NCBI GenBank assembly: GCA_032718475.1
Contig: JAUCBJ010000943.1
Location: 15,475 to 79,474, forward strand
Length of the DNA: 64,000 bases
Direction of reading: 5' to 3'
DNA from: Nemertoderma westbladi
Lineage: Eukaryota; Animalia; Xenacoelomorpha
Shown: positions 4,100 to 48,335 of the stretch, in pieces
Layout: the number at the start of each line of letters is the position of its first letter
Numbering within the stretch: position 1 is the stretch's first letter
The notes under the pieces: model-generated
What the model was told of the DNA's origin: nothing
The model's input: only the letters and a program-made list of their open reading frames with translations
Database searches by the model: none
Program-made: the position numbers and the translations under genes

Positions 4100-4266
4100 A
4101 GAAATCGCCATACGCCAAATCGCACGCCACTTTCACTCCTCTCATCTTCTCGGCTTTCGGAGGAATGGCGCCGCTGTGTCGCCAGTTTATCAAGCGCCTC
4201 GCTTTAAAACTGGCAGATAAGCGGCAGATCCCATACCCGGAGTGCATCTCGTGGGTGCGGCGACGA
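4100..4266 (+). pseudogene. CRE-clade (RLE-type) non-LTR retrotransposon 3' remnant, part 1 (interrupted by the LTR element)
   Basis: HATFTPLIFSAFGGMAPLCRQFIKRLALKLADKRQIPYPECISWVRRR continues in frame after the TSD at 17003 as ISFALLRSSLMCLRG, a typical CRE-type C-terminus. Confidence 0.8.
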
Positions 4267-5425
4267 TGTAAAAGCTTTTGCGTCATTAACCGGTTATTTT
4301 CCCTTAAAGTACTCTGTAGTTGGTTTACCAGGCATAAAAAGGCCGTGTCCTTGCTGTACTGGTGTTTTAGAGGACATAAAAGTCATTTCTTCTGTATTTG
4401 CACTGTATTCGTACTTTAGAGGACATAATCCGCAATCTCGTGACGCGATAAGCTAGATACTCTTGAAAACAGTGTCGCTACCATGACGACGGCTAACAGC
4501 TGATATTGCCACGTCGACATTTCTTTGTTTCTTTGTTCTCTAGTTGTTCGGTTGACCAATCAGAGCGTTTTTTGTCTCTGTGTTGGAGGTGTATACAGAA
4601 CTCAGTAGTTCAGTGTTATGTTTTTGCCCAGAGCCTAAGAACATCGGCTTTTGGCACCTCCGTGTTTTCAGTCTTTAGTCTTACATTAGTAGGCTTAATT
4701 ATAGAACGTATATCTGTTATCAAGCTATTCACTTATTCACTCAATATCCATAAATTACTAACATTACTGCTTTTGCTGTTGGTTATTCGTTATATTTGTT
4801 GATGAAATATTATATCGGAATACTGATCAATAGTCAGACACCCCACCTTCTTGATATACTAAAGGTTAGAGAGACCGGTTACAGATAAACGATTGCGACC
4901 TATGTTAAGTGGTTTGAAGTGAATCTAATGCTATTTCATATGCCCAACATAAATTGTCTGTTGCTCTCTTTATACGTGACTAAATTTAGTGAAGGTCGGC
5001 AGATTAGTGTGCAGTATTGTGCAGCATTGTGTATGAGTGTAACTGATAACAAAGCATCTCCTAAAGAATGCGCCATATACGTGAATCTATAGCCTTTTCG
5101 TTGTGTCTAGTTTAAGTCATAACTCTGTTTACATATTTAGAGCGCCACGTCCTAAAGGAACTGTTGATATTTCCCGAAAGTGAATAATATTTGTCAGAGA
5201 TTATATATTACGATCAGTCGAATAATACAGTAGGCTTACACCATCAATCATTAAGCTCCGAACTCAGTCTCCCGGGTATATCCAACGGGTGAATGATTGC
5301 GCATAGACTGGCTTCGGCTAATGTAGTGTATTAAATACTCGTCATAGGCTAAAGACTATCTATCATCCAAAAGACATTCTAATTTTGGCAGGTTAAACTG
5401 TCAAAGGTCTTCAAAAGCGCAAACA
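4267..5425 (+). repeat. 5' LTR
   Basis: tgtaaaagc...gcgcaaaca. Matches 15839-16997 with only 4 substitutions noticed by eye. Confidence 0.97.
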
Positions 5426-5436
5426 ATAACAGATAT
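5426..5436 (+). promoter_or_regulatory. Candidate self-priming primer-binding site
   Basis: ATAACAGATAT directly after the LTR is the exact reverse complement of ATATCTGTTAT at 4710-4720 in the LTR. No TGG-initiated tRNA PBS at the boundary. Confidence 0.6.
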
Positions 5437-5690
5437 TGCTTCTGGATTGCGGTGTAAGCAATCTAGTCGAAAGTACCGGTCGACCGGTAACCAGTAGGCC
5501 TGACTGCCTGATCATCCGGACCGGTACCTACTTACGGTACAGGTACAGCAGTATTATTCGATTGTGGTATTGTATACCGGTAGGCTGTTTAAGAGATTAG
5601 GGACTGTACACCCCTTGTTTCTTTTGGAGCTTACTTATTTCTGTCAGTTTTATTTATTTGTAGGCCAGTATTGAGCAGAAGGCGTGTAAG

Positions 5691-5976
5691 CCCGCTCAGA
5701 TTGTACAGATAATTTGTAGGCTCGACTGTTGGCTAACTGTTGATTAGGTCTGAACGGATTGCAGTGCATGTAGAGTGTATGTCCGATAAAGAACGGTTAG
5801 GAAGTAGGGGCAGCCATAGCTGTAAGGTAAACCCCCATCTAAAGAATAAGTCGTACTACTGGGTTAGAACGCATACTACTTAACCATTTCGGAGTCTGCA
5901 TGTCCTGTGGTTTATTTAGGCCTGATAGGAGTCCGCCAGCGTTTGGTCTGTACTTTGTTTGTGTAGTCTGTACGGG
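5691..5976 (+). ncRNA. Rod-like structured RNA element, copy 1 (retroelement 5' leader)
   Basis: Nested pairing cccg/cggg, tgtacagataa/ttgtttgtgta, tgtaggc/gtctgta, gcatgtaga/tctgcatgt, ccga/tcgg, ggtta-aagtag/ctactt-aacc. Many G-U pairs on the + strand. Confidence 0.7.
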
Positions 5977-5978
5977 TA

Positions 5979-6262
5979 GCGTATAATTTTATTTAGATAA
6001 TTTGTAGGCTGGATAGTTGTCTGACTGTTGTTGGGTTTGAGGAAATTTCGGTGTGTGTAAAGCATCTGTCCGATAAAGAACGGTTAGGAAGTAGGGGCAG
6101 CCATTGCTGTAAGGTAAACCCCCATCTAAAGAATAAGTCGTACTACTGGGTTAGAACGCATACTACTTAATCATTTCGGAGTCTGCATATACCTTAGTTT
6201 GTTTAGGCTTGATAGTAGTCTGTCAGTATTTGGTCTGCATTTTGTTTGAATAGTCTGTACGC
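5979..6262 (+). ncRNA. Rod-like structured RNA element, copy 2
   Basis: Tandem paralog: gcgtata/tgtacgc, tatttagataa/ttgtttgaata, ggtgtgtgta/tgcatatacc. The ~120-nt apical core is nearly identical to copy 1. Confidence 0.7.
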
Positions 6263-7236
6263 GTAGCATAATATTTATTATTCAGAGTTTATGCGATTAT
6301 TCGCAACATTCATATTCCCCAAGTTTGTTCCTACAGTAATTGTGTTTGTTATACATACCGTTATAGTTAAACTAACCCCGGTACTATACGGGCTGCTTGG
6401 CGTAGGTAAAGACTGGTGATTTTGTGCACCGGTCACTCCAGCAGATGCCGTGGTTCTTTTAGCTGTTCAAGTATTTTTAACTACTAATTATTTGTTATAC
6501 AAGTACTTGTACCTAATTTAGGGTTTAGTGTACAGTGCTTTCCGAAAGCAATTAGTGTGTAGGCAGTGTATTTGTGTTGTAAAGTGGTTAATAGGCACGT
6601 TGGTTCTGGTAGACCGCGGTAATTAACTTCTAGGTAGGGACACTCCGTGATACATAACGTAGTACCTATAGCGATACGGTTATAGGTCGTCAGGCGGTGG
6701 TATTTTCCTATCTGGACAACGCAGTATATTTACTACTACTTATTATTTTCAAATACCGTAGTAACCTGTCCGTTGTAATAACCAGATATTCTAACCCTTT
6801 GTTAGGCTGGTTAGTAGACTTCTTGTAAAATTACCCTAAAAATTTGTATTTGTGTATTTGTAATTAAATTTTTGTGTTTATTTAGAGATTGTAATCTCAA
6901 CCCGAATTGTACGTAATTTGTAGTATTAAGTAACTTAGGTAAATTAGAATTACTTGTTTTAGTGTCTAACAAGTAGCACTCCACTGAGAGCGCACAGCTT
7001 ATACGTAGTGACTCCCCCAGAAATAATAACATTTATTTCAAACATTGACAAAACCCATTAAACGGGTATATATATATTATAAATCAACTCAAACGATTTA
7101 TAAATAGTAGGCCTGCCATATAACAATTAGGTCTCAATATCAGTTGGACTACTGCTTAAATAACGGTAATAAAGTAAGTTAAAGTAACCAAGTAACCCTT
7201 AAAATTCAGAAATTCAATTATTCTAAAATAATTGAT

Positions 7237-7460
7237 ATACCGGTATTTACGATAGGCCTATTATATATTTATATACTTGTGCTGAAATCATACCGGTATT
7301 CTGTAATTAATTCTAGTCTGTAATTATACTTATATATATACATTATAGGTGTAAACTGCATACCGGTATTCACGATAGGCCTATTATATATTTATATATT
7401 TGTGCTAAAATTACCTACCGGTATTCTGTGATAAACTAGTCTGTAATAATACTTATATAT
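7237..7460. repeat. ~120-bp tandem duplication just upstream of ORF1
   Basis: ataccggtatt(t/c)acgataggcctattatatatttatata...ctagtctgtaa occurs twice. Confidence 0.8.
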
Positions 7461-7600
7461 ACTATAAGCATACCGGTATACTAATATATTATATATCACG
7501 CTACACTGAGTAGCAGTATCGGTAATTAATTACTAGGCTAGCAGTTAATTCTGAATTACTAGACTTGCTTAGACTGTAATATAGCAGTAGGCATTCAACT

Positions 7601-9766
7601 GTGCAAACCAACATGTCTGATACTAAACAGAACCTGTCAGACAGTTTATTAGATGTAACTATCTGCGACTCAGATAGAGGTGTAGAACCGTCTAGTCCTA
7701 AGTTCAGTTCACCTCCCACTGTGAGGAAGGTCATCCCTCCAGTAGTAATAACAGAACCTAGGCTGGTCCAACATCGTAGGTCTATCATAGGCACTCGAGC
7801 TCAGGTCAAGCGGGACCAAGAAGCAGCGGAACAGCAACAACCCGCGAGCCAAGAACTTATTTCTCAGCAGCCCGACAGCTCCAGTAGTGAAGATACTGTA
7901 GAACTGACACCCGAGCGCGGAGCAAAGATGACGGATGCGGTTTATTCGGATCCCCTTCTCATCCTTCCTGCAGCCGTACTCACTAGGTTATTGATCGCGG
8001 TGGAAGAACACCAGATCGATTGGGCGAGGAGTAAGCGATCAACTAAAGATAGTTATGAGGGATACACAAGGGAAGAACTGAAGTCTATGGTCGAGTCGCA
8101 ATGGAACTTCCCCGGACCCGGACTCCCGTTTGATTTATCAGAAGCTGCCTGGGAAGACATACACCGGATGGGAGTAGCCAAGGAAACCATCGATCCAGAT
8201 GTATGGAAGAGGTCCGCAGCCAGATATGCACAAGGATTCTTCAGCTCTATGGAGCGAGTAGAAAAACAACTGTTTCAACAACCTCAAGGACCTCAAGAGC
8301 AGGGACAACTGCTTTATCAAGTTAGAGAAAGAATTCTGCGAATTAGGCTAATCTTATCGGCCTTTGAGGAGGCTTCTAAAAGAAGACAAGACACGTCGTT
8401 GCAAGTTGCCGTAAAGACTTGGTTTCAACGGGTGAGTCGCCAGGTTCAAGGAACAGCTCAGTGGAAAGCTCAGCTGGAGGAGCGCTCAACCCATGGAGAA
8501 TCAACAGACGCTACTTTTTCCCAAGTGGAAAGTGAAGCGACAGCAGAGAAACCGCATAAGAGGGATGCCATTGACATCTATCTGTCAGACTATCAGCGTT
8601 TCGTAGGTGATGAAGAGTTGAGGAGAAGGTTGGACGGACTTAGCCCTAATAGTGAAGGAGCCCAGCGTGTGTTGGATGCAATCGTTGTGGATAGGTTAGC
8701 TGTGAACCAAGCTAAATTCAATGAAAGCATCCGCATCGCTAAGGTTCAAGAAGAACAAGTAAGGAAAAAACGTATAGAAGATAGAAAGAAAGCGGCCGAG
8801 GCAGCGGCAGAGGCAAAAGCGGCAGCGGCAGAGGCAAAAGCGGCAGCTGCAGCAGTAGAAGCCGAAAGAAAGGCGGTAGAAGCCGAAAGAAAGGCGGCCG
8901 AAGCGGAAAGAAAGGTGGCAGCTGCAGCAGTAGAAGCCGAAAGAAAGGCGGCCGAAGCGGAAAGAAAAATAGCAGTAGCAGAAGCAGAACGAAAGGCATC
9001 TGAAGAGACAACCCAACTAGAGTTGGAAAATCTTCAAGAGAAACAAGACAACTTTAATAAACAGTTAACAGCTAGTAATATGCAGATGATGAATCGATCT
9101 ACTCCCAAAAGACAGGGTTATACATCATCTGAGGAAGGAGATACCACCGACACTGAAGGCGGAGGAAATCGATCTCGCCTAAGCAGACGTAAAAGAACAT
9201 CCCACCGTCAAAAATTGCCTGATTTGCCTCCAGCTGTTAGAAGGCAACTAAATAACACCAACTTAGGTAGTACAGAACCCACAGACCAAATAATTACAAT
9301 AGAAAGACTCCCTACTATAGTAGATGAGCCTGAAATAATTAGGCCTGTTCCCGAAGCCACCCTTTCGGTGGTAGAGACACCTGTACTCCCTGAACCTACC
9401 TCTCAATTCCCTTTGCACAGCACTAAGCTACCTGTGCCCAGCAGAACGGCCCATGAGACAGTTCATGCCCTGGACTCCGAGCGAAATATTCATGATTTGT
9501 CGCCCGTTGTCCCTCGTCCGCCCGCTACAACGTTGGCGAATCCCGCTTCGGCGGTTGAATGGGTGGATGAGAGACGACGGGGGATGGATCTCCTGCTCGG
9601 ACAGATGCAGGAGACCGTTCAGCAATTCAAGGGCACAGTAAGGGAAAGTAGGCTAGAGTTGCAAGAGGTGCAGCAAAGTATCGCGCTAGAACGCGATAAA
9701 TTAGTAAATGCACAAAAGGGTATACCACCACCCCCTGTAACCATGTGTCAACCTGTTAGGTCTTAA
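7601..9766 (+). CDS. N-terminal part of the BEL/Pao Gag polyprotein (low complexity, coiled-coil AEAKAAA/AEAERKA repeats)
   Basis: 721-aa ORF inside the LTR element (first ATG 7613). Same frame as the next ORF, separated by a single TAA. Confidence 0.7.
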   Translation: MQTNMSDTKQNLSDSLLDVTICDSDRGVEPSSPKFSSPPTVRKVIPPVVITEPRLVQHRRSIIGTRAQVKRDQEAAEQQQPASQELISQQPDSSSSEDTVELTPERGAKMTDAVYSDPLLILPAAVLTRLLIAVEEHQIDWARSKRSTKDSYEGYTREELKSMVESQWNFPGPGLPFDLSEAAWEDIHRMGVAKETIDPDVWKRSAARYAQGFFSSMERVEKQLFQQPQGPQEQGQLLYQVRERILRIRLILSAFEEASKRRQDTSLQVAVKTWFQRVSRQVQGTAQWKAQLEERSTHGESTDATFSQVESEATAEKPHKRDAIDIYLSDYQRFVGDEELRRRLDGLSPNSEGAQRVLDAIVVDRLAVNQAKFNESIRIAKVQEEQVRKKRIEDRKKAAEAAAEAKAAAAEAKAAAAAVEAERKAVEAERKAAEAERKVAAAAVEAERKAAEAERKIAVAEAERKASEETTQLELENLQEKQDNFNKQLTASNMQMMNRSTPKRQGYTSSEEGDTTDTEGGGNRSRLSRRKRTSHRQKLPDLPPAVRRQLNNTNLGSTEPTDQIITIERLPTIVDEPEIIRPVPEATLSVVETPVLPEPTSQFPLHSTKLPVPSRTAHETVHALDSERNIHDLSPVVPRPPATTLANPASAVEWVDERRRGMDLLLGQMQETVQQFKGTVRESRLELQEVQQSIALERDKLVNAQKGIPPPPVTMCQPVRS

Positions 9767-9784
9767 GTATCTCATGCGCAAGGT

Positions 9785-12589
9785 GTGGAGCCTACACGCA
9801 TCTATACTGCTAGCGAAGTAGAAACTCCTATAGTGAACCCTATTAAGGGTAATTATAGACCTGTTGATAATGATATTCCCTATAGACCGGATCATAATCC
9901 GAGAAATTTATATACCGATAACTCGATATTAAATAACACGATGGCCCAAGAAAGTTTTACGCGTCAAATGGCTAGAACCGAAGCCCGGCAAGCGGTAAAG
10001 GTGGGAGAGATCGTCAAGTTCAATGGAGATGAGATGAAATGGTTACCTTTTAATGAATATTACAAAGATAACATACAGAACTCTGTGCTATCTAATGGAG
10101 AGAAACTTAGATTCCTCATCGAGTGCTTGGAAGGATGTCCCAAGTTAATGGCGTTAAAGTTTATTGGACATCCAGACGGATTAAGACAAGTTTGGGATAC
10201 ACTAAACATCAGGTATGGTAATAGGAATAACATAGCTGGGTATTTGTATGCAAAGTTGGTAGCGCCCCGAAAGTTTATTAGCAGCGGAATTATAGAGTTT
10301 TCCGATGAGATTCAGGAGATCTGCAGACAATTAGATTGGCTAGGTAAGTCTCATGAGTATCAGAATGCTATGGTTATTAGAGCAGTGGCTTCTACTTTAC
10401 CGAAGGGTGGAGTAGGTACACGCTGGGATAAGAAAGTGTTATATATGATGGAACAACAACGACGAGACCCTACCATGGCTGATCTCATGTCATTCCTAGA
10501 TGGAGAAGTGAAATTACAGCTCCTAAGGCAGTCCAGAGAGAAGACACTGGAAAACAAGGTAAGTGAGAAACCCGTTTCTAGGAGAAGGGTAATACCAGTG
10601 TGTTATACAGACGACAGCAAAAGCCAGACTTCTCAAGGAGAGGATAGCGGGAAAGACACTGAAAGATCTTACTATGACAACAAAACGCCTAAAGACCAGG
10701 TAAGTAAATTCAAGTCTCGAACCAATGACAGGAGAGAACAGGTAAGAAAAACTCCTCCTACGTCTCCCAAGAGAATTCAGGTGAGAAAGCCCGAGGAAAG
10801 AACGAACGTGCACCACACAGCACATGCTAAAGTAAGTAACATCAAGCCCAAATGTGTGCTGTGCGATGGGCCCCACCGTTTAAGTGCGTGTGATGAATTC
10901 CTGAGGAAATCTCTAAAGGACAGACGTGAAGTCATGTGGGATAAGCGGTTGTGTTATAATTGCCTCAGACGAGGACACCAACGGCGAACCTGTTACTCCG
11001 ACGCAAGGTGTGCAAAGTGCGGTGCGAAACATCATATCTTGTTGCACACTGAATTCGAGCGAAATAGTCCGAGTCAGGTGAGTGATTCCGAACTACATGT
11101 CCAATTCAGTGATGTGAACGACACTGATCAATCTGAGATGGAAGGATTCTATACGGACGAGTTCTCCGACGAAAACGAATCCTGTTACATGATAAATACC
11201 GCAGTGTATCGAGCACTCACTCATGAAAAAGATACAGACAGCGACCTCACCCTAACTACTTCAGATCAACAACAATCTTGGAAAGCGCCAACTTCAAATG
11301 TAGGAATCCGAGAATTTGCTGTAGTCCAGTTACGGGTCCACGGACCTCAGAAGAGCTATATAGTGAACGCCCTCCTGGACTCCGGCAGCACAGGAACATT
11401 CATCGATAAAGAACTAGCCGAAGACATCTTTGCTGGACAACCCAAGTTCCGAACCAAGCTAAACATGTCAGGGATCATGCAGGTTTGGAAATCTGCTGTG
11501 GCTGCCGACTATTATATAGGTGAGTTGTCCACTCCACAGGATAAACTAGGAGAATACAGTATAAGGTCAGTCAAAATGGTGGCAATAAAGAACTTCGCTA
11601 CCACCCAAGTGGAACCTTATAATTGGGACGAAGATGATCATGCCCAACAACTTAACATTCCTAGATTCGACACCGATTATCCTGGAGTACAAATATTAAT
11701 CGGTCAAAACGCGCATGAGGCGCTGGAGACATTGGAGAAACGACCTGCTCAACCGCAACCACTTCAGACCTATGCGGTAAGAACTAGAGTAGGTTGGTAC
11801 CTTACTGGACCTTCCCGAAGAACGCTCAGAGAAAGACTGCTTCAAGATCGCGTCTGCCAAGTGAGTGAATGGGAAGATGATACTAGTGAGGGAGACGACC
11901 CAACTGAGGGAACACCATACTCCTCAGATAATGACGATATTAGCTCCAATGTAGATCAATGGAGATATTGCCCCAAGAAGTTTAATCCAACTGACATCGC
12001 TTCCAGAGGAGCAACTCCTCAAGAACTGACAGATACTACAGACCGGTTAGGTGAACCCGACTTCCTGAGTAAGGAGGATGAATGGCCTCCCCATCTTACT
12101 CCGACTGAGATTAGACCAGCCAAGGGAGCGGAGAAAGTCAAACCTAAAACCCGGACGGGTGGATCGGAGTTATTTGAACCCGGGATAGATCTGTCGGTAT
12201 TACATATTGCCAGGGACGACGCCGTGGATCTGGACCTCCCCACTGCGAGTGGATCCTTCATGAAGATCAGAGAGAGCGATTGGAGCTCTGGAACATCAGA
12301 CGTCTCGCAGGGACTCTCACCTCTCCTGCAGGGAGCGACGGACCACTATAGCTCCTGGAATCGGCTTTGTAAGGCCGTCGTGTACCTAGAGCGATGTTTC
12401 TATCGTCACTATTCCAGGACGAAGAGGAAACCTGGAATTGTATTCGGGATGCAGCGACTCAATCACCCAGTCAGTCGTTTGTGTTTACCGGAAGGGAATG
12501 GAGGACTCTCCGGAAACTGTGGAAGGCAAGATTCTCTTCCCACGACCACCTCCCTAATCCTTCAAACATCTAGGGACTCCATAACGTAA
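9785..12589 (+). CDS. BEL/Pao Gag (DUF1759-like capsid region, 3 Zn knuckles) + aspartic protease + fused RNase H C-terminal remnant
   Basis: KFNGDEMKWLPF...LSNGEKLRFL. Knuckles CVLCDGPHRLSAC, CYNCLRRGHQRRTC, CAKCGAKHHILLH. Protease ALLDSGS, ILIGQN, TRVGWYLTGP. Then QWRYCPKKFNPTDIASRG and YSSWNRL. No YxDD RT motif or integrase recognisable. Confidence 0.9.
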   Translation: MEPTRIYTASEVETPIVNPIKGNYRPVDNDIPYRPDHNPRNLYTDNSILNNTMAQESFTRQMARTEARQAVKVGEIVKFNGDEMKWLPFNEYYKDNIQNSVLSNGEKLRFLIECLEGCPKLMALKFIGHPDGLRQVWDTLNIRYGNRNNIAGYLYAKLVAPRKFISSGIIEFSDEIQEICRQLDWLGKSHEYQNAMVIRAVASTLPKGGVGTRWDKKVLYMMEQQRRDPTMADLMSFLDGEVKLQLLRQSREKTLENKVSEKPVSRRRVIPVCYTDDSKSQTSQGEDSGKDTERSYYDNKTPKDQVSKFKSRTNDRREQVRKTPPTSPKRIQVRKPEERTNVHHTAHAKVSNIKPKCVLCDGPHRLSACDEFLRKSLKDRREVMWDKRLCYNCLRRGHQRRTCYSDARCAKCGAKHHILLHTEFERNSPSQVSDSELHVQFSDVNDTDQSEMEGFYTDEFSDENESCYMINTAVYRALTHEKDTDSDLTLTTSDQQQSWKAPTSNVGIREFAVVQLRVHGPQKSYIVNALLDSGSTGTFIDKELAEDIFAGQPKFRTKLNMSGIMQVWKSAVAADYYIGELSTPQDKLGEYSIRSVKMVAIKNFATTQVEPYNWDEDDHAQQLNIPRFDTDYPGVQILIGQNAHEALETLEKRPAQPQPLQTYAVRTRVGWYLTGPSRRTLRERLLQDRVCQVSEWEDDTSEGDDPTEGTPYSSDNDDISSNVDQWRYCPKKFNPTDIASRGATPQELTDTTDRLGEPDFLSKEDEWPPHLTPTEIRPAKGAEKVKPKTRTGGSELFEPGIDLSVLHIARDDAVDLDLPTASGSFMKIRESDWSSGTSDVSQGLSPLLQGATDHYSSWNRLCKAVVYLERCFYRHYSRTKRKPGIVFGMQRLNHPVSRLCLPEGNGGLSGNCGRQDSLPTTTSLILQTSRDSIT

Positions 12590-13137
12590 CAACATATGGA
12601 GTGGGTGTGTGACTCTATTATTTTGTATTTGTTTTATTTTTATATTTATGTATGTATTATTATGTAATTTTATTTTAATCGTTTTATTTAATTTTATTTA
12701 GTAGTATGGTATTTTAGAGATTATTTAGTAGATTAGTGCAATATATATTCGCGTTTATTATTTAATTACGTATATTATATATTTAGTGCGACGGCGAGAA
12801 ATAATTCTTTTTCTCTTTCCTTACTGCCCGTATCATATTATAAATACGTGACTACAGTAAGATGAAATATCCGTACTTATTAAAGTACAATAAAGCCACT
12901 ACTATATTCAAGTATTATTGGTAGGCAGAGTATTAGGAATGCAAAGTTCAGATCCTCGTGTCTCGGCTAAACCAAGCTCTGGGTAGACCTTGGAAACGAC
13001 TTGCCTCTTCACACTGACATTGTTTCGTGCGATATTGCTCTCATACCGTATATTAAATAATACATATAGTAGCGTGATGTCCCTTTAACAGTAGCGTATA
13101 ACGCAAAATAAATCTGTTAAACCCTTTGACCATCTGT

Positions 13138-13410
13138 AATTCTAGTCGATTAAGATATCGTGGCACCCACCGATATACTTGAAAGACAAATTTCTAGAAT
13201 CAGTGGTTAACGTCCCCAGACAAGTTCTGGAATAAACTGGTGCCCATCCTAAATATTAATTATTAATATTTACAAAAATCTGTCAAATATCAGGTCCTTT
13301 AAAATTCTAGTCAATTAAGATATCGTAGCACTTACCGATATTCTTAAAAAGACAAAATTCCTAGAATTAAGGATCCTATGTCCCCAGACCTGCTCTGGAA
13401 TCAAATTGTG
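13138..13410. repeat. ~165-bp diverged tandem duplication in the 3' internal region
   Basis: aattctagtc(g/a)attaagatatcgt...gacaaa...ctagaat...gtccccagac...ctggaat occurs twice. Confidence 0.7.
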
Positions 13411-14215
13411 TCAATTTTAACATCAAATAATAAAATTTACGGGAATAAATTTAAATTCATATATTTCAATGAATTTAATAAATTGTCATTTTGTACAATT
13501 TATAACATTCCCAAAATTCCATTAATTAATAGATCATGGGAGCGGAGATTCACTATATTAAGTGTATTTGTGTGCGAGAATCTCCAATGCATAGTCAATA
13601 GCCGATAAAATTCATAGAATCATGTATAAAGGGGATATTGACCATTAAAGAATTACTATTAAATAGCATCCCAGATCTGTATGCATGAGAATTACCCTAA
13701 TTCTACCGCTAGCTTTCCATAATGTCACCATGGCAACAACCACGCTAGAATTGGAGGTGAGTTAAAAGAACAATAGAAGGCATGCCCCATTGAATAGCAT
13801 AGGGAATAAATAACACACCGCTAGTATCCAAGGATACATAATAACAACGTGACATTCTGGAAGGCACTTGACTAACAGACAAATGACCCAAATGTGTGAT
13901 AGAATGTGTACCATTTGTGACTGTTACGTGGAATTTGTGCATTTGTAGGTGAATGTTACTACTAAGGTGTGTTTACAGTAGCGAGTCGCAATTGTGAAAG
14001 TAACCCTAACTCTCCAGTAAGAACCCGAAGTATATCTAAGCCTTTGGGACGGACGGTGGAGTGGCTCGTGCTGGTTGTTGTAGTCGTTGTGCAGCTACGA
14101 CGTTGGCGATAGGCACATCGGCGAAAGTACACCAGCGCTGAGGATCTCGCACTGTCCGGGGGCAGAGAGGGGTAGGCAGCGACGCCCGCTCGCCTAAATA
14201 TAAACTCATTATAAT

Positions 14216-15812
14216 ATGGATAAACTTATATAGCAGATAGGATTGAGTTGATAGAAGATGATCTTGGTATCAGGGAGCGATATACTCTACCTTTACAAGC
14301 GTTTGTTGATAGCTTGATACGCGGCGACGCTGGTCCAACTGCTGCGGAGGACGATGGTCGTTATATCAAACCGCCAATGTCCCAAGAGCAGCTCACGCGT
14401 GAGTTGGACTATAGAAAATTCACCGCTCGCTATACGCATCGTAATGGTACGTATGTAGACTTCTTAACTACTGGTCATCCTATCGACCTACACGATACGG
14501 ACGATATAGACACCGAAAGGGAAATGGTTTTATTTAAATATCATACCCAGCGGAAGCGGAACGATAAACTGAGACTCGAACACGAAAATTCTATTCGAAA
14601 CCGACTCGAAAGTGCAGATGTCGAAGAGCCGGATAAACGCAGCGACTCCACCAAATACCTGGAATGCTTGAGAGAAACCTATCTCGATATTACCAGTCAA
14701 CAGAATCTAGAAACTCGATATCCTCAAGGTATACATCATGACCGCATGGTAGAACTCAAACGGCTCTATTCCACTATGATGTATCTTACCGCCGATCGAT
14801 CGCTACCTGTTGTACCGGATAGCTTCGAACGGATGGAGGAATATTGTAAGCTGGAGAGAGATCACTCGCGTTTCCCCTACAAGACGTGCGTTTTGGTATT
14901 ATTGCGATGAATGCCCAAGACCCAACCAACAAACGGAAAGACATAAACATCCGCGGAAACGTTGCTTTAAACACGGTTTTACTCGCTATACTTACGGGAG
15001 TTTCGAGCGAAACTTGTTCGATGTATCACCTACGCTCGTTCGACTCAGACGATCCTTAAATAAACCAATGATCAGAGTTTCGGAATACTCGATCAGAACT
15101 CCTCATTCCCTAGTGAGACTTCAGACTCTTGATCCTATTAGTATGACGGATCCTCCCGAGCTGTACTCACTGCTCAAAGATCTAGTGTTACCTGAACAAT
15201 TAGTCGGTGGCACCCCAGTTGTGGGCTTCCTAGAGATTAGCCCATTCTACCTAACCGGATTGGGACGCGGACATTTAATATCGCCGTTTAACCCTTACCA
15301 TCGTCCCAGCTTAACACGATATAACCTGTCACCAAAGTGGCGGAGAACGTTGTACCAAACGAGTTAAACGCTATTCTACAAAGATCAGAAAGGAAACCTG
15401 CGTTTGTTCAGATAAACGTAAGTTGTAACAGCAAGTCCAAGCGATAAACGAATTGTCTTTATCTCAGTTCGATTGTGAAATCCAGAATCTCTAAGAAGAT
15501 ATCGAACTTAGACAACCCCATTCTCTGCGAGAGTTTTTGGATGAACGTATCCAGCTACGAGCGGAGGAAAATCAGCTCGAGGAGAAGCATATCGAAACGG
15601 CGGATACCCCGACCATAATCCTACACCTTCTGATGCAATCATATTGCACCCTTCACCCAGGATTTATAGCCCTCCTAGTAAAGTGGCTCGCCCCAAAGAG
15701 AAAAGGACTCTTGCTAGCCTCAAAAGGCTGCGTAAACGCCGTCCGCGTAAGAAAGACTAACTGTTTAGAGTATTTTTATATTTTAGAAACTGTGATTTGT
15801 TATATTTTATAG
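14216..15812 (+). pseudogene. Frameshifted orphan ORF in the env position of the LTR element
   Basis: ATG 14216 (MDKLI) joins ORF 14248-14910 if an extra TA is removed from a tatata run. Overlapping 14810-15367 frame has WYYCDEC...H...C..H. Further piece 15537-15812. TATAAA at ~14198. Confidence 0.5.
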
Positions 15813-15830
15813 ACTTAAATCCCATTTTCT

Positions 15831-15838
15831 GGGAGCGG
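15831..15838 (+). other. Polypurine-tract-like sequence
   Basis: GGGAGCGG immediately 5' of the 3' LTR. Confidence 0.55.
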
Positions 15839-16997
15839 TGTAAAAGCTTTTGCGTCATTAACCGGTTATTTTCCCTTAAAGTACTCTGTAGTTGGTTTAC
15901 CAGGCATAAAAAGGCCGTGTCCTTGATGTACTGGTGTTTTAGAGGACATAAAAGTCATTTCTTCTGTATTTGCACTGTATTCGTACTTTAGAGGACATAA
16001 TCCGCAATCTCGTGACGCGATAAGCTAGATACTCTTGAAAACAGTGTCGCTACCATGACGATGGCTAACAGCTGATATTGCCACGTCGACATTTCTTTGT
16101 TTCTTTGTTCTCTAGTTGTTCGGTTGACCAATCAGAGCGTTTTTTGTCTCTGTGTTGGAGGTGTATACAGAACTCAGTAGTTCAGTGTTATGTTTTTGCC
16201 CAGAGCCTAAGAACATCGGCTTTTGGCACCTCCATGTTTTCAGTCTTTAGTCTTACATTAGTAGGCTTAATTATAGAACGTATATCTGTTATCGAGCTAT
16301 TCACTTATTCACTCAATATCCATAAATTACTAACATTACTGCTTTTGCTGTTGGTTATTCGTTATATTTGTTGATGAAATATTATATCGGAATACTGATC
16401 AATAGTCAGACACCCCACCTTCTTGATATACTAAAGGTTAGAGAGACCGGTTACAGATAAACGATTGCGACCTATGTTAAGTGGTTTGAAGTGAATCTAA
16501 TGCTATTTCATATGCCCAACATAAATTGTCTGTTGCTCTCTTTATACGTGACTAAATTTAGTGAAGGTCGGCAGATTAGTGTGCAGTATTGTGCAGCATT
16601 GTGTATGAGTGTAACTGATAACAAAGCATCTCCTAAAGAATGCGCCATATACGTGAATCTATAGCCTTTTCGTTGTGTCTAGTTTAAGTCATAACTCTGT
16701 TTACATATTTAGAGCGCCACGTCCTAAAGGAACTGTTGATATTTCCCGAAAGTGAATAATATTTGTCAGAGATTATATATTACGATCAGTCGAATAATAC
16801 AGTAGGCTTACACCATCAATCATTAAGCTCCGAACTCAGTCTCCCGGGTATATCCAACGGGTGAATGATTGCGCATAGACTGGCTTCGGCTAATGTAGTG
16901 TATTAAATACTCGTCATAGGCTAAAGACTATCTATCATCCAAAAGACATTCTAATTTTGGCAGGTTAAACTGTCAAAGGTCTTCAAAAGCGCAAACA
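15839..16997 (+). repeat. 3' LTR
   Basis: Copy of 4267-5425, followed by TSD GACGA. Confidence 0.97.
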
Positions 16998-17002
16998 GAC
17001 GA

Positions 17003-19192: not shown

Positions 19193-19645
19193 TACTACTA
19201 GGATCGGCATGCTGCATTGCAGCTGCATTTCTAAGAATGCTGTGCCGGCTTGTCAACAAAATTGCACCGCCACAACTCCCTATCACCCATGACATTTGCT
19301 AGATCATCCGCATCTTTAAGGCCAGTGTCCTTTAAGATACGTCTCAAGAAAGTCATGGGCTGTCCACCATGCTTATTCACTCCATGAGGCTGCCAAAGTA
19401 CAAGATTATGCACTGGCTGGTCCTCACGGCGAAAGCAATGTCCTGCAAAGCGGAGGCGATTTTGTTCTAGTGTCAAGCTTGGGGGAACCAATGAGACACC
19501 TCCAATGTTATATAGTGTCTGGTTGGAGATGTGTGCATTGTACTTGACACAATGAACCCGGCGTAGCATTCTTGTGAATGTGCCATCCAGAGATTTGGTG
19601 TCCTCAGCAGTTAGAGCCCAGCATGGACTCCCGTAGAGGAGTACT
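19193..19645 (-). mobile_element. 5'-truncated RTE-clade LINE 3' end with short (TAG)n-like tail
   Basis: The reverse complement matches 63750-64000 apparently exactly. Encodes ...RLRFAGHCFRREDQPVHNLVLWQP...DRELWR. Ends GATCCTAGTAGTA. Confidence 0.9.
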
Positions 19646-22395: not shown

Positions 22396-22660
22396 GAGTA
22401 GCCCTAGCTGCATGGAAACTTTCTGACTTTCTGGTTGTAAATACGGTACCGGTAAAATTTATGGCTGATCTCCAGCCAGATAGTGACCAATCCCGCAATC
22501 TTCCAGTATACCACTACCAGTGTTCCTAATCCTATAATCCTAACTGCAGAACTGCTACAGCAGTACAGTGCTAGGTCTATACCTGTATACTGCTATAGCT
22601 GTATAGGCAGATTGCAGATACTGAGATACAGAGATAGGCAGATAGGTACAGAGCTATTTG

Positions 22661-23856
22661 CACAAGTCCCTAAAAGGTGCCACCCTGCTCCATAGCGCGG
22701 GAAATTCAAATGATTGAAAGACATGTAATTTGTACTGGAAAGGGTGGCTGGCAGATCAGATCTGTTACCTATATTTTGGCGGTAAATTCAAATCTATTTT
22801 AACATTGAATACATGAATAGAGTAAGACTAAATGTAATTCATTGAATCAGAATAAATTATTTCTTTTCGGTTTAACTCACTCATCCGTTAATGTTGTTGA
22901 TTTATCTATTCTGGGACTTCGAGCAGCACGTGAACAACTAAACCAGCACGTTAATTAGTTTGGGGCTTCGAGCAGCACGTGTACAACTAAGCTCACTAGT
23001 TAACTTGTGTGGGACTTCCAGTAGCACGTGAACAACTAAGCTGACTGGTTAACTAGTCTGGGACTTCGAGCAAAATTGCAAATTGAGGAGGGGGGGGGGG
23101 GGGGGGGGATCGGGGGATTTGGCTTAACTTCTATTAGTAAAATGTAAAGAACATTTATTATTTGCTTGTATCAGTTATAATTACATCAGAACATTATAAT
23201 TATAACAATATAGCAGGGAACTGATAGTAAAATATATCACAGGTAGGCCTACTGTAATAATTTAGGTGAATAATGCCTCTGCCTGTACTGCTATATCTGT
23301 CCTTGACATGTCCCAGACTAGTTAACCAGTCAGCTTAGTTGTTCACATGCTGTTCAAAGTCCCAGACTAGCTAACCAATCAGCTTAGTTGTTCACGTGCT
23401 GCTCGAAGTCCCAGACTAGTTAACCGGTCAGCTTAGTTGTCCACGTGCTGCTCGAAGCCCCAGACTAGTTAAGCAGTCAGCTTAGTTGTCCACGTGCTGC
23501 TCGAAGCCCCAGACTAGTTAACCAGTCAGCTTAGTTGTTCACGTGCTGCTCGAAGCCCCAGACTAGTTAACGTGCTGGTTTAGTTGTTCACGTGCTGCTC
23601 GAAGTCCCAGAATAGATAAATCAACAACATTAACGGATGAGTGAGTTAAACCGATAAGAAATCATTTATTCAGATTCAATGAATTACATTTAGTCTTACT
23701 CTATTCATGTATTCAATGTTAAAACAGATTTGAATTTACCGCCAATATATAGGTGGCAGATCTAATCTTCCACCCTTTCCAGTACAAATAACATGTCTTA
23801 AAATCATTTGAATTTCCCGCGCTATGGAGCAGGGTGGCACCTTTTAGGGACTTGTG
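22661..23856. mobile_element. Foldback (Galileo-like) non-autonomous transposon with long TIRs containing 49-bp tandem repeats
   Basis: cacaagtccctaaaagg... inverted at ...cttttagggacttgtg. Arms ~410 and ~545 bp with 3 vs 6 copies of the 49-bp unit. Probable 7-bp TSD CTATTTG/CTCTTTG (1 mismatch). Confidence 0.85.
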
Positions 23857-24000
23857 CTCTTTGCTATAGGCCTATACCGGTACCTGTATACAGATAGATA
23901 TCAGGATGATATAGATAGGCCTATCAGCCTATGGCCTAGGCCTACTACAGTACTAAACTGCCTGACTGCTACAGTGCTAAAATACTGAAATAAACAGATA

Positions 24001-25023
24001 ATGTCATACGAACCACCTAAGGCCCCACCACCCTCATACGGGTTCGCTACTGATCCCAACGCAGCTTACCCTCCAGTTCAAGCAGCCTACCCTCCTCCGG
24101 GCCAACCACCTTACCCACCCGGTCAACCCCCTTACCCTCCGGGTGAACCCCCGTACCACCCTGACCAGTCGGCAGCATACCCTCCACAAGCACAACAACC
24201 CGCGTATCCTGGCTACACTGCTGCCGCTCCTCAATATACGTCACCCTCGACTGGGCCGGACCCCTCTAGCTATGGTGCCACCACCGCGTCCGGTCTCCAA
24301 CACCACGATTACACCACCGTCGGTGCTCCGGAACCCGGGTTCGCCAAAGCCTCATTCTCCGACCAAGACGTTCGCCGCGCTTTCATTAAACGGGTCTACA
24401 GCATCCTCTCGATACAGCTGATAGTTACCTGTGCGATCATCGCCCTATTCACTTTCCACGAGCCGACAAAGTTGTTCGTAAAAGCCCACAGCTATCTCTT
24501 GTGGGTTGCACTGGGTGGCACGCTGGTTATTATAATCGCGTTGGCCTGCTTCGACAGTATTCGACGCAAACACCCCCTTAACATCATCCTGCTGGCGGTG
24601 TTCACTTTGTTCGAAGGGTTTCTTTTGGGCGCAATTTCCTCCTCATACGACGTGGAGTCTGTGTTTATCGCGGCCGGCAGCACAGCTGCCGTTACCATTG
24701 GTCTCACTATCTTTGCGTTCCAAACCAAGTTTGATTTCACTAAGTTTGGTCCCTACCTTTTCGTCGCATTGATCGTTCTCATGCTCTTTGGTCTCTTTAT
24801 TTGGATATTCGGCGCCGGTAAAATCACCCTGATTATATATGGAAGTCTCGGTGCTCTGCTGTTTAGTTTCTATCTCGTTTTCGACACGCAGTTGATGCTC
24901 GGAGAAAAACACAAGTACTCGCTGTCTCCAGATGAGTACATAATGGCTGCGCTTAATCTCTACATAGATATCGTTCAGATATTCATGTATTTGCTGATGA
25001 TAATTGGCATTGCGAGAGACTAA
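24001..25023 (+). CDS. GRINA: Protein lifeguard / TMBIM family (Bax inhibitor-1 fold), GRINA/TMBIM1-3-like, intronless
   Basis: Pro/Tyr-rich N-terminus with PPxY-like motifs. FSDQDVRRAFIKRVYSILSIQL, multiple TM segments, QTKFDFT, VFDTQLM, SPDEYIMAALNLYIDIVQIF. The exact paralog assignment is tentative. Confidence 0.95.
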   Translation: MSYEPPKAPPPSYGFATDPNAAYPPVQAAYPPPGQPPYPPGQPPYPPGEPPYHPDQSAAYPPQAQQPAYPGYTAAAPQYTSPSTGPDPSSYGATTASGLQHHDYTTVGAPEPGFAKASFSDQDVRRAFIKRVYSILSIQLIVTCAIIALFTFHEPTKLFVKAHSYLLWVALGGTLVIIIALACFDSIRRKHPLNIILLAVFTLFEGFLLGAISSSYDVESVFIAAGSTAAVTIGLTIFAFQTKFDFTKFGPYLFVALIVLMLFGLFIWIFGAGKITLIIYGSLGALLFSFYLVFDTQLMLGEKHKYSLSPDEYIMAALNLYIDIVQIFMYLLMIIGIARD

Positions 25024-25891: not shown

Positions 25892-27847
25892 AGTATATAT
25901 ACAGTACACTACTCCTCGAGTATATACAGTACAGTACTCCTCGAGTATATACAGTACTCCTCGAGTATATACAGTACAGTACTCCTCGAGTATATACAGT
26001 ACACTACTCATCCAGTATATATACAGTACAGTACTCCTCGAGTATATACAGTACACTACTCATCCAGTATATATACAGTACAGTACTCCTCGAGTATATA
26101 CAGTACACTACTCATCCAGTATATATACAGTACAGTACTCCTCGAGTATATGCAGTACAGTACTCCTCGAGTATATACAGTACTCCTCGAGTATATACAG
26201 TACAGTACTCCTCGAGTATATACAGTACACTACTCATCCAGTATATATACAGTACAGTACTCCTCGAGTATATACAGTACACTACTCATCCAGTATATAT
26301 ACAGTACAGTACTCCTCGAGTATATACAGTACACTACTCATCCAGTATATATACAGTACAGTACTCCTCGAGTATATACAGTACAGTACTCATCCAGTAT
26401 ATATACAGTACAGTACTCCTCGAGTATATACAGTACAGTACTCCTCGAGTATATACAGTACAGTACTCCTCGAGTATATACAGTACAGTACTCCTCGAGT
26501 ATATACAGTACAGTACTCCTCGAGTATATACAGTACAGTACTCCTCGAGTATATACAGTACACTACTCATCCAGTATATATACAGTACAGTACTCCTCGA
26601 GTATATACAGTACAGTACTCCTCGAGTATATACAGTACAGTACTCCTCGAGTATATACAGTACAGTACTCCTCGAGTATATACAGTACAGTACTCCTCGA
26701 GTATATACAGTACAGTACTCCTCGAGTATATACAGTACACTACTCATCCAGTATATATACAGTACAGTACTCCTCGAGTATATACAGTACAGTACTCCTC
26801 GAGTATATACAGTACTCCTCGAGTATATACAGTACAGTACTCCTCGAGTATATGCAGTACAGTACTCCTCGAGTATATACAGTACAGTACTCCTCGAGTA
26901 TATACAGTACAGTACTCCTCGAGTATATACAGTACAGTACTCCTCGAGTATATACAGTACAGTACTCCTCGAGTATATACAGTACAGTACTCCTCGAGTA
27001 TATACAGTACAGTACTCCTCGAGTATATACAGTACAGTACTCCTCGAGTATATACAGTACAGTACTCCTCGAGTATATACAGTACACTACTCATCCAGTA
27101 TATATACAGTACAGTACTCCTCGAGTATATACAGTACAGTACTCCTCGAGTATATACAGTACAGTACTCCTCGAGTATATACAGTACAGTACTCCTCGAG
27201 TATATACAGTACAGTACTCCTCGAGTATATACAGTACAGTACTCCTCGAGTATATACAGTACACTACTCATCCAGTATATATACAGTACAGTACTCCTCG
27301 AGTATATACAGTACAGTACTCCTCGAGTATATACAGTACTCCTCGAGTATATACAGTACAGTACTCCTCGAGTATATGCAGTACAGTACTCCTCGAGTAT
27401 ATACAGTACAGTACTCCTCGAGTATATACAGTACAGTACTCCTCGAGTATATACAGTACAGTACTCCTCGAGTATATACAGTACAGTACTCCTCGAGTAT
27501 ATACAGTACAGTACTCCTCGAGTATATACAGTACAGTACTCCTCGAGTATATACAGTACTCCTCGAGTATATACAGTACAGTACTCCTCGAGTATACAGT
27601 ACAGTACTCCTCGAGTATATACAGTACTCCTCGAGTATACAGTACAGTACTCTTCGAGTATACAGTACAGTACTCCTCGAGTATATACAGTACAGTACTC
27701 CTCGAGTATATACAGTACAGTACTCCTCGAGTATATACAGTACAGTACTCCTCGAGTATATACAGTACACTACTCATCCAGTATATATACAGTACAGTAC
27801 TCCTCGAGTATACAGTACAGTACTCCTCGAGTATATACAGTACAGTA
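25892..27847. repeat. 25-bp minisatellite (tatatacagtacagtactcctcgag), ~78 units
   Basis: Direct tandem array with interspersed variants (cactactcatccag; 20-bp and 23-bp units). Confidence 0.98.
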
Positions 27848-30028: not shown

Positions 30029-33000
30029 GGAGGCAGGGGCCACTGACGCAAATACAGAGGCAGGGGCCACTGACGCAAATACAGAGGCAGGGGCCACTGA
30101 CGCAAATACAGAGGCAGGGGCCACTGACGCAAATACAGAGACAGGGGCCACTGACGCAAATACAGGCAGGGGCCACTGACGCAAATACAGAGGCAGGGGC
30201 CACTGACGCAAATACAGAGGCAGGGGCCACTGACGCAAATACAGAGACAGGGGCCACTGACGCAAATACAGAGGACGGGGCCACTGACGCAAATTCAGAG
30301 GCAGGGGCCACTGACGCAAATACAGAGGCACGGGCCACTGACGCAAATACAGAGGCAGGGGCCACTGACGCAAATACAGAGACAGGGGCCACTGACGCAA
30401 ATACAGAGGCAGGGGCCACTGACGCAAATACAGAGACAGGAGCCACTAACGCAAATACAGAGGCAGGGGCCACTGACGCAAATACAGAGGCAGGCGCCAC
30501 TGACGCAAATACAGAGGCAGGGGCCACTGACGCAAATACAGAGGCAGGGGCCACTGACGCAAATACAGAGGCAGGGGCCACTGACGCAAATGCAGAGGCA
30601 GGGGCCACTGACGCAAATACAGAGGCAGGGGCCACTGACGCAAATACAGAGACAGGGGCCACTGACGCAAATACAGGCAGGGGCCACTGACGCAAATACA
30701 GAGGCAGGGGCCACTGACGCAAATACAGAGGCAGGGGCCACTGACGCAAATACAGAGACAGGGGCCACTGACGCAAATACAGAGGCCGGGGCCACTGACG
30801 CAAATTCAGAGGCAGGGGCCACTGACGCAAATACAGAGGCAGGGGCCACTGACGCAAATACAGAGGCAGGGGCCACTGACGCAAATACAGAGACAGGGGC
30901 CACTGACGCAAATACAGAGGCAGGGGCCACTGTTGCAAATACAGAGGCATGGGCCAATGACGCAAATACAGAGGCAGGGGCCACTGACGCAAATACAGAG
31001 GCAGGGGCCACTGACGCAAATACAGAGGCAGGGGCCACTGACGCAAATACAGAGGCAGGGGCCACTGACGCAAATACAGAGGCAGGGGCCACTGACGCAA
31101 ATACAGAGGCAGGGGCCACTGACGCAAATACAGAGGCAGGGGCCACTGACGCAAATACAGAGGCAGGGGCCACTGACGCAAATACAGAGGCAGGGGCCAC
31201 TGACGCAAATACAGAGGCAGGCGCCACTGACGCAAATACAGAGGCAGGGGCCACTGACGCAAATACAGAGGCAGGGGCCACTGACGCAAATACAGAGGCA
31301 GGGGCCACTGACGCAAATACAGAGACAGGGGCCACTGACGCAAATACAGAGGCAGGGGCCACTGACGCAAATACAGAGGCAGGGGCCACTGACGCAAATA
31401 CAGAGGCAGGGGCCACTGACGCAAATACAGAAGCAGGGGCCACTGACGCAAATACAGAGGCAGGGGCCACTGACGCAAATACAGAGGCAGGGGCCACTGA
31501 CGCAAATACAGAGGCAGGGGCCACTGACGCAAATACAGAGGCTAGGGGCCACTGACGCAAATACAGAGGCAGGGGCCACTGACGCAAATACAGAGGCAGG
31601 GGCCACTGACGCAAATACAGAGGCAGGGGCCACTGACGCAAATACAGAGGCAGAGGCCACTGACGCAAATACAGAGGCAGGGGCCACTGACGCAAATACA
31701 GAGGCAGGGGCCACTGACGCAAATACAGAGGCAGGGGCCACTGACGCAAATACAGAGGCAGGGGCCACTGACGCAAATACAGAGGCAGGGGCCACTGACG
31801 CAAATACAGAGGCAGGGGCCACTGACGCAAATACAGAGACAGGGGCCACTGACGCAAATACAGAGGCAGGGGCCAAAATACAGAGACAGGAGCCACTGAC
31901 GCAAATACAGAGGCAGGGGCCACTGACGCAAATACAGAGGCAGGGGCCACTGACGCAAATACAGAGGCAGGGGCCACTGACGCAAATACAGAGGCAGGGG
32001 CCACTGACGCAAATACAGAGGCAGGGGCCACTGACGCAAATACAGAGGCAGGGGCCACTGACGCAAATACAGAGGCAGGGGCCACTGACGCAAATACAGA
32101 GGCAGGGGCCACTGACGCAAATACAGAGGCAGGGGCCACTGACGCAAATACAGAGGCAGGGGCCACTGACGCAAATACAGAGGCAGGGGCCACTGACGCA
32201 AATACAGAGGCAGGGGCCACTGACGCAAATACAGAGGCAGGGGCCACTGACGCAAATACAGAGGCAGGGGCCACTGACGCAAATACAGAGGCAGGGGCCA
32301 CTGACGCAAATACAGAGGCAGGGGCCACTGACGCAAATACAGAGGCAGGGGCCACTGACGCAAATACAGAGGCAGGGGCCACTGACGCAAATACAGAGGC
32401 AGGGGCCACTGACGCAAATACAGAGGCAGGGGCCACTGACGCAAATACAGAGGCAGGGGCCACTGACGCAAATACAGAGGCAGGGGCCACTGACGCAAAT
32501 ACAGAGGCAGGGGCCACTGACGCAAATACAGAGGCAGGGGCCACTGACGCAAATACAGAGGCAGGGGCCACTGACGCAAATACAGAGGCAGGGGCCACTG
32601 ACGCAAATACAGAGGCAGGGGCCACTGACGCAAATACAGAGGCAGGGGCCACTGACGCAAATACAGAGGCAGGGGCCACTGACGCAAATACAGAGGCAGG
32701 GGCCACTGACGCAAATACAGAGGCAGGGGCCACTGACGCAAATACAGAGGCAGGGGCCACTGACGCAAATACAGAGGCAGGGGCCACTGACGCAAATACA
32801 GAGGCAGGGGCCACTGACGCAAATACAGAGGCAGGGGCCACTGACGCAAATACAGAGGCAGGGGCCACTGACGCAAATACAGAGGCAGGGGCCACTGACG
32901 CAAATACAGAGGCAGGGGCCACTGACGCAAATACAGAGGCAGGGGCCACTGACGCAAATACAGAGGCAGGGGCCACTGACGCAAATACAGAGGCAGGGGC

Positions 33001-38444: not shown

Positions 38445-39059
38445 AACTATAACTACTGTATATATAAAGTCAAATCAATCAACGATAAACAAACATAAAA
38501 TTATAGCGTATCATTTGAATTTGATTTTTCACTACTTAAAATATTCCAAACCCATTTTATATTTTATTGCAAATAAAACAAACACAATAATAACAAACAA
38601 AACAAAACAATAATTGCACAGAAAATAATAAAATGGTGTTAACGTATCAATTTGTATAAATTAAAAAAATCCAACAATTATAAAATAACCTTATCCGTTA
38701 TATTTTTCATTTACAAAAACATAAGTTTAATGAAAAAAAATGATCGTTTTTCGATAATAACCTAGAGTTAAAAAGGCACCAAATAAACTACCGGTAATAG
38801 TTTTTTCCTAAAACAATTAAAAAAAAAAAACAATTCGTTCTTTCAGTGTAGACAATTTATTATTGTCATACCTGGTCTCCATTGTATTGCATAGATTTTG
38901 AAAAACAACTGCTTGCAAATATATATATATATATATACATATATACATATACCTGTATATCGTTCATCGGGCAAAAACAGTCAAAATTATACGAATATGA
39001 AAATATAAGGACTGCTGTTCGTATACGAAACTCTGCGCTTTTAAAATATCTTTATTGCA

Positions 39060-48200: not shown

Positions 48201-48335
48201 AAGCCTGTAAATATTGAGCAGGATAGGTTGGTGTTATATGTTTTGTGCTCTCTGTGTTTCGTTCTCTGTGGCGTTTTCTATGGTCTATGAGGTTCTCTGT
48301 CGAGCCCTATGGGCTCTATCCCCGCCTGATCCCAT
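42253..48335 (-). mobile_element. Tandem array A of a non-coding Helitron-like element (one partial + three 1719-bp units)
   Basis: Junctions cccat|ctagagtagagcgcaaatgaggacatttgcgc at 43179, 44898 and 46617. On the minus strand each unit ends hairpin-TCTACT-CTAG. Internal ~300-bp subrepeats. No TIR or TSD. Confidence 0.7.

Follow-up and report, generated by a model that had tools for sequence, protein, structure and literature searches.

A BEL/Pao-derived LTR element of Nemertoderma westbladi that likely primes reverse transcription with its own RNA

An LTR retroelement of the BEL/Pao type in Nemertoderma westbladi likely uses its own RNA as the primer for minus-strand DNA synthesis. The element lies in a 64,000-nucleotide stretch of contig JAUCBJ010000943.1 (positions 15,475 to 79,474 of the forward strand, assembly GCA_032718475.1; "the window", to which all coordinates refer). 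Directly after its 5′ LTR, flush with the LTR end, is a primer binding site (PBS) without TGG (5426–5436, + strand), and within the LTR is an 11-mer, the candidate self-primer (4710–4720, + strand), which is its exact reverse complement. The core of the initial annotation of this stretch is confirmed by direct comparison: the complementarity is perfect, the 11-mer is kept in the 3′ LTR (second copy at 16282–16292), and the duplex ends at the LTR boundary, the match being 11 nt and no longer and the next pair (C4721/A5425) a mismatch. A TGG-type PBS is absent as claimed, the sole TGG within 55 nt past the LTR being at 5443, 17 nt off and inside a predicted stem of the leader. Self-priming itself, as proposed there, is something we infer; the proposal has gained from a predicted RNA fold, from conservation, from one contig with a compensatory allele and from distant loci that encode reverse transcriptase (RT), but co-variation of primer and PBS is partial.

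The element is an LTR insertion of 12.7 kb. Self-comparison delimits two 1159-bp TG...CA LTRs on the + strand (5′ LTR, 4267–5425; 3′ LTR, 15839–16997), and the identical five bases GACGA on both outer sides form a 5-bp target-site duplication (4262–4266 and 16998–17002). With four LTR differences in 1159 bp and an intact target duplication, this is a young insertion. A purine-rich tract (15831–15838, + strand), likely the polypurine tract (PPT), precedes the 3′ LTR, and G-rich tracts resembling it also precede LTRs in the metagenome BEL/Pao loci examined. On the + strand, an ORF of 728 codons (7580–9766, first ATG 7613), likely an N-terminal Gag extension and without a Pfam match, is separated by a stop from an ORF in the same frame (9767–12589) that encodes BEL/Pao Gag (DUF1759, E 4e-10; zinc knuckles) and protease, followed by remnants of the RNase H-integrase linker. 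Aligned with full-length BEL/Pao polyproteins, the latter ORF matches their Gag, zinc-knuckle and protease regions and then jumps from the protease straight to the linker between RNase H and integrase, so that it lacks RT and RNase H (gap about 11810 to 11945); neither a domain search nor alignment to the full-length polyproteins matched an integrase in the element's ORFs. The relatives that match the element's protein carry Pao-type domains. The initial assignment to BEL/Pao LTR elements thus stands for gag, protease, LTRs and duplication, but this copy is without RT, RNase H and integrase and is therefore classed as a non-autonomous BEL/Pao derivative rather than an intact member; having no such enzymes of its own, it would depend on those of a helper.

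Other parts of the element are out of the ordinary for BEL/Pao. The leader (5426–7612) is very long, at 2.2 kb, and holds internal repeats of 288 bp and 123 bp and many splice-like sites. The 3′ region (12590–15838) spans 3.2 kb and contains two overlapping ORFs of no recognised family (14224–15367, + strand; 228 and 195 codons); a search of the ESM Atlas with the element's 3′ ORF returned no credible family. Protein searches with the element found distant relatives only and no RT-encoding partner from its own family. DNA patterns of the family matched neither viral nor metagenome contigs (0 in each). In a gag-protease tree the element is on a very long branch grouped with TGG-bearing elements, a placement that is unreliable.

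The remainder of the window is rich in other repeats. A 252-bp inverted repeat, 100% identical, at 19394–19645 and 63749–64000, the latter reaching the window end, possibly marks the ends of a >44-kb DNA transposon enclosing several satellites; a weak DUF1258 ORF (36099–38474, minus strand) lies between the two copies. The satellites occupy 25896–27847, 30030–35154, 42253–55751 and 58708–60111, with unit lengths of 25 bp (in 79 copies), 27 bp (in 191 copies, both strands having long open frames) and about 1.73 kb (in 7.7 copies and a detached partial unit). A foldback element at 22660–23857 has 413-bp inverted arms that are 93% alike and 49-bp tandem repeats inside, and an uninterrupted ORF of the Bax-inhibitor-1 family (23989–25023; PF01027, E 1e-43), surrounded by repeats, is possibly a retrocopy or captured gene.

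Mature tRNAs all end in CCA. An 18-nt PBS complementary to a tRNA 3′ end is absent after the 5′ LTR; tRNA genes were found neither in the 64-kb window nor in the 56 metagenome loci scanned, and Rfam had 0 matches over 4200–7600. The complement of the post-LTR 11-mer was present in 5 of 5000 dinucleotide-shuffled LTRs, and an 11-nt match was reached by 1 of 1000 random internal 30-mers; of the element's 10403 internal 11-mers, four have a complement in the LTR, one of them being 5426–5436. The imperfect outward pairing (agaa/ttct) described initially does exist, but at chance level (−10.4 kcal/mol, with 32% of 2000 shuffles as good), and its leader bases are predicted to pair with 5234–5256 instead. 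Pairing between the bases adjacent to the primer, upstream or downstream, and the PBS flanks was likewise at chance in all four tests. Within the element's own LTR, no spliced primer reached 11 nt under loose GT-AG rules, and none exceeded the contiguous match under strict rules.

The PBS is embedded in a predicted fold. When the leader was scanned against 219 LTR tiles, the best duplex was at 5222–5270 (about −24.7 kcal/mol; 2 of 300 shuffles as good). In the predicted leader stem the LTR arm 5234–5256 pairs with the leader arm 5438–5459, and in a predicted U5 stem the LTR arm 5297–5302 pairs with the U5 arm 5417–5422 (all + strand); between the two, 5423–5437, holding the PBS 11-mer, is predicted to be unpaired. 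Folding of 5225–5468, bounds picked after the stem had been seen, gave z-scores of −4.5 for the + strand and −2.9 for the − strand (0 and 2 of 200 shuffles, respectively), and the segment starting at 5227 had the lowest z among 40 grid segments over 4267–7626 (20 shuffles each). With both 11-mers barred from pairing, the leader stem had a probability of about 0.9–1.0 in nine of ten folds and 0.5 in one; with the 11-mers free to pair, this ranged from 0 to 0.98. The primer duplex was mostly missing from nested folds with upstream starts (near 0 in 6 of 10); it crosses the leader stem, so that folds of this kind cannot show both at once. The stem arms are about 500 nt downstream of the candidate primer. 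Near the LTR end, 5377–5393 resembles a splice acceptor (branch motif, T tract, CAG) and is predicted to be hidden in a hairpin; an intron ending there would delete the LTR arms of both predicted stems.

Self-priming in Tf1 depends on three duplexes, the primer:PBS duplex and two in which sequence next to the PBS pairs with parts of the LTR downstream of the primer, as set out in the accessible part of the preprint (bioRxiv 2022.12.06.519325). The layout of the stems predicted here corresponds to this "pretzel" arrangement. A leader-LTR stem was not above shuffles in seven other BEL/Pao loci (best 25 of 300), and stems alone cannot tell which primer binds the PBS.

Variation within the element's family, which is abundant and diverse in public contigs, bears on both partners of the duplex. 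Contigs of four public runs were aligned to 4200–6000, with variants taken from the 40 listed of 287 rows, and to 4620–4770, where all 4 substitution rows and 19 of 41 loose ends were listed. A family-wide conserved block (4683–4721, + strand) ends one base past the candidate primer; across the four runs it has zero listed substitutions at 3% or more and two small listed insertions, in data from which contig-end variants can be filtered out. Directly after the primer follows a copy-specific, G-poor segment, recognised by a drop in depth (4722–4770, + strand, right edge approximate), of which 4722–4767 holds a single G. Depth past 4721 falls within 12 bases from 137,091 to 10,939 to 596 in X1 and from 83,068 to 6,683 to 582 in X3, and the loose ends listed include several distinct ones at 4721–4727, with differing sequences after the break. 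That conservation stops one base after the proposed cut is modest evidence: other stretches of the LTR are also variable, and taken by itself the boundary at 4721 might be fortuitous.

Seven of the listed variants fall in 5225–5468, and none breaks either core stem: three lie in unpaired stretches outside the PBS, one preserves its pair as a wobble, the PBS itself holds one and a peripheral 2-bp helix is disrupted by two. The common 5421 A>G retains its U5-stem pair as G-U. The PBS variant, 5433 A>T, accounts for 31% of depth in X1 and 51% in X3, and 5433T is present in both covering contigs of X5, which is from another, related organism. A prediction fixed beforehand was that 5433T copies should carry 4713A. 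Co-variation had been suggested initially as a test among related families; within the element's own family it is seen only in part. One X3 contig has 4713A together with an insertion close by that accounts for about 1% of depth in X1 and X3 and 7% in X4. However, 4713 T>A is not among the variants listed at 3% or more, although the position lies 8–10 letters from contig ends, where filtering may hide more, and in X5 one primer-site contig with 4715C gives a 9/11 match to the PBS contigs with 5433T, these pieces being unlinked. A depth step at 4712/4713 was rejected as a sign of a common 4713 variant, since the common variant at 4682 would produce the same step if contigs break 30 letters later, a distance derived from 31-letter words. 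The same contigs disposed of two candidate signals in the LTR: TCAGTC at 4668 as an initiator, since several contigs differ there, and ATTAAA at 5330 as a poly(A) signal, since 5332 is C in 97–99% of depth (X1, X3).

Other BEL/Pao elements were surveyed with a profile of 21 polyproteins, which yielded 79 metagenome loci, the top-scoring of at least 572 that were confirmed. Upstream DNA was present for 47, and these were examined; the loci described below are distant from the element, with protein identities of 20–28% where matches are longer. In five of the 47 the LTR end is fixed by two copies. In three (L016, L019 and L055) the PBS is complementary, over 12, 15 and 11 nt, respectively, to a GT-AG junction predicted within the LTR of the same locus (nulls 0, 0 and 1 of 1000; match offsets 3, 3 and 0), and none has a TGG within 10 nt of the LTR end, L016 having one at 11 nt. 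The other two (L029 and L049) have TGG sites, which we take to be tRNA-Tyr-like, and match their own LTRs over only 4 and 5 nt. Autonomous relatives with a normal tRNA PBS at this place had been named initially as evidence against self-priming; on this point distant families alone inform, with three of the five fixed-end loci lacking such a site but two having TGG. ORFs of >1300 codons with an RT motif are found in L004, L008, L019, L037, L043, L047, L055, L057 and L022.

Among 12 loci without a fixed LTR end, strict splice rules gave 11–12-nt spliced matches at ...ACA ends in five (nulls 6, 5, 6, 16 and 39 of 300), a 10-nt unspliced match in L037 (2/300) and no match in six. Relaxing the acceptor rule brought L044 and L045 to 10 nt (20/300 and 25/300), left L009, L034 and L035 at 6–7 nt and gave L037 an 11-nt spliced match (1/300). 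L022, of a sister family of L037, has an 11-nt contiguous match (3/300). With LTR ends that are themselves inferred, the PBSs of L037 and L022 have a 7-nt core in common and the remaining letters are changed in primer and PBS alike (primer regions: L037 2024–2440, predicted spliced; L022 1–290, contiguous). A 9-nt match in L032 was the same as in its controls. L052 (120–265) combines a TGG-type site, presumably tRNA-Val-like, with a 14-nt match to a predicted LTR splice junction 123 nt downstream; the locus may be in transition from one mode of priming to another, or the match may be fortuitous, and, being ambiguous, L052 is left out of the counts, although it is scored as "self" in the trees.

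The primers of several of these distant loci span a predicted splice junction and are thus internal to the RNA, so the 5′ end of the element's RNA need not be at 4710. A primer formed by the extreme 5′ terminus of the RNA, as it is in Tf1, is a tentative possibility, and a somewhat doubtful one; an internal primer has a chance that we put a little short of even, and the element's primer would then be an intron-free counterpart of those that splicing is predicted to build in other BEL/Pao families. By a narrow margin of belief we favour a general reading in which self-priming is a common, unreported mode among BEL/Pao elements: many lineages would splice an LTR intron to build the primer, intron loss would give ready-made primers, as here, and the present element would add to this an independent Tf1-like fold, as a Gag-protease parasite on helper RT. 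In such spliced lineages, only the processed 5′ copy would be able to pair with the PBS.

In the mechanism that we propose, the transcript would start at or upstream of 4710, carrying 4710–4720 near its 5′ end; no TATA-like motif was found about 30 nt upstream of 4710. The 11-mer would pair with the looped PBS, held open between the two predicted stems. By analogy with Tf1, RNase H of the helper would cut after 4720 and so free the primer 3′ end. RT borrowed from an intact relative would then extend the primer, copying 5425 back to 4721, and the resulting strong-stop DNA of about 705 nt (4721–5425) would transfer to the 3′ LTR, from whose copy the 11-mer would be restored. As suggested by the L037/L022 pair, loss of the intron may have turned a formerly spliced primer into the contiguous one.

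Priming at the looped 11-mer could instead be due to a host RNA in trans (a half-tRNA, tRNA fragment or other small RNA), the LTR match being chance or a side effect. Half-tRNA PBSs without TGG are known in copia elements, according to the available portions of two reports (PMC6317226, PMC5445492), and the ICTV account describes BEL/Pao as tRNA-primed (PMC8742986); moreover, the stems flanking the PBS do not identify the primer, and primer/PBS co-variation within the element's family is incomplete. We nevertheless regard a host primer as improbable: the PBS is itself variable (5433 A/T), the flush exact match has a chance of about 0.001, and a fixed host primer fails to explain distant non-TGG PBSs that are diverse in sequence yet match their own LTRs.

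The pairing might also have been selected for another role, such as RNA dimerisation or packaging, splicing control or a conformational switch, with priming by another route. The PBS with its flanks (5424–5438) is near-palindromic, more so with 5433T, and in the GalEa copia elements of fungi the PBS is replaced by a conserved palindromic hairpin to which the accessible text assigns no role (PMC5445492); splice-acceptor-like motifs are present in the conserved block, though eight such occur in the LTR overall. Against this, the LTR end offers no alternative primer site, the duplex terminates precisely at the required start of synthesis, and the elements with TGG sites are without a self-match (2 of 2 with a fixed end), so that a different function has a low probability. 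Chance complementarity in the AT-rich LTR of a defective element with a decayed PBS is very improbable: three further internal 11-mers have an LTR complement, the finding was drawn from a very large scan and the 14-nt match beside a TGG-type site in L052 indicates that long matches can mislead, but a young element of an abundant family must have a working primer, and the fold, the conservation and the pattern in other loci do not depend on the 11-mer count.

Self-priming by the element's own RNA, the reading that we prefer, has its closest precedent in Tf1 of Schizosaccharomyces pombe, which, in the accessible parts of the literature, self-primes via an LTR-encoded 11-nt primer and a PBS adjoining the 5′ LTR (PMC7175516, PMC4600332, bioRxiv 2022.12.06.519325), with the primer released by an RNase H cut (PMC7175516). 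The same partial texts treat self-priming as demonstrated in Tf1 and as a proposal for Tj1 and the Tf1/sushi group (PMC7175516, bioRxiv 2022.12.06.519325, PMC4600332). The element resembles Tf1/Tf2, Tj1 and the Tf1/sushi chromoviruses, as far as they are covered there, in having a PBS complementary to an LTR-encoded 11-mer, and Tf1 also in the two additional duplexes between PBS-adjacent and LTR sequence, which are predicted in the element. In contrast to the Tf1/sushi group, it is BEL/Pao by its proteins and not a Ty3/gypsy chromovirus; unlike Tf1, it is without its own RT and has about 700 nt from primer to PBS and about 500 nt from primer to stem arms. The Tf1 primer is the cleaved 5′ end of the RNA; for the element, cleavage is proposed by analogy, and a primer at the 5′ end is the less favoured of the two placements. 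By this comparison, the element likely works like Tf1 but outside the Tf1 lineage.

The ICTV describes Belpaoviridae as having an 18-nt PBS for tRNA-Arg or tRNA-Gly (PMC8742986). The element agrees with that account in gag, protease, LTRs within the range of 0.2–1.2 kb and a purine tract before the 3′ LTR, and departs from it in its length (12.7 kb versus 4.2–10 kb) and in having no tRNA PBS, RT, RNase H or integrase (PMC8742986). Self-priming has been predicted from sequence for the plant TAR copia and Tcn1 gypsy elements, which, in the available portion of that report, also lack a tRNA PBS, so that the mechanism spans more than one clade; these belong to plant hosts and to superfamilies other than BEL/Pao (PMC6317226). 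Fungal GalEa copia elements, with their Conserved Hairpin Site, likewise lack a tRNA PBS and have a palindrome at the LTR end, but a complementary LTR sequence was not found for them in the accessible text (PMC5445492), whereas the present element has an exact one. The literature searched, mainly open texts without supplements, contained no report of self-priming in BEL/Pao, and an earlier mention is possible; the parts available of PMC3601003, PMC5445492, PMC5443660, PMC8220671 and bioRxiv 2023.10.26.564294 make no such claim, and in PMC3118150 and PMC554778 the terms searched for PBS, tRNA and priming had no hit in the main text.

Animals have three main groups of LTR retrotransposons, of which BEL/Pao is one, and the official description has it primed by tRNA. 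If many BEL/Pao elements self-prime, some of them via host splicing, then self-priming has arisen or persisted far beyond the Tf1/sushi group. Annotation tools that demand a tRNA PBS would, if this is true, miss or misjudge such elements, and control by PBS-blocking tRNA fragments would not reach them. A convergent pretzel fold would also be a direct test of the RNA features that self-priming requires.
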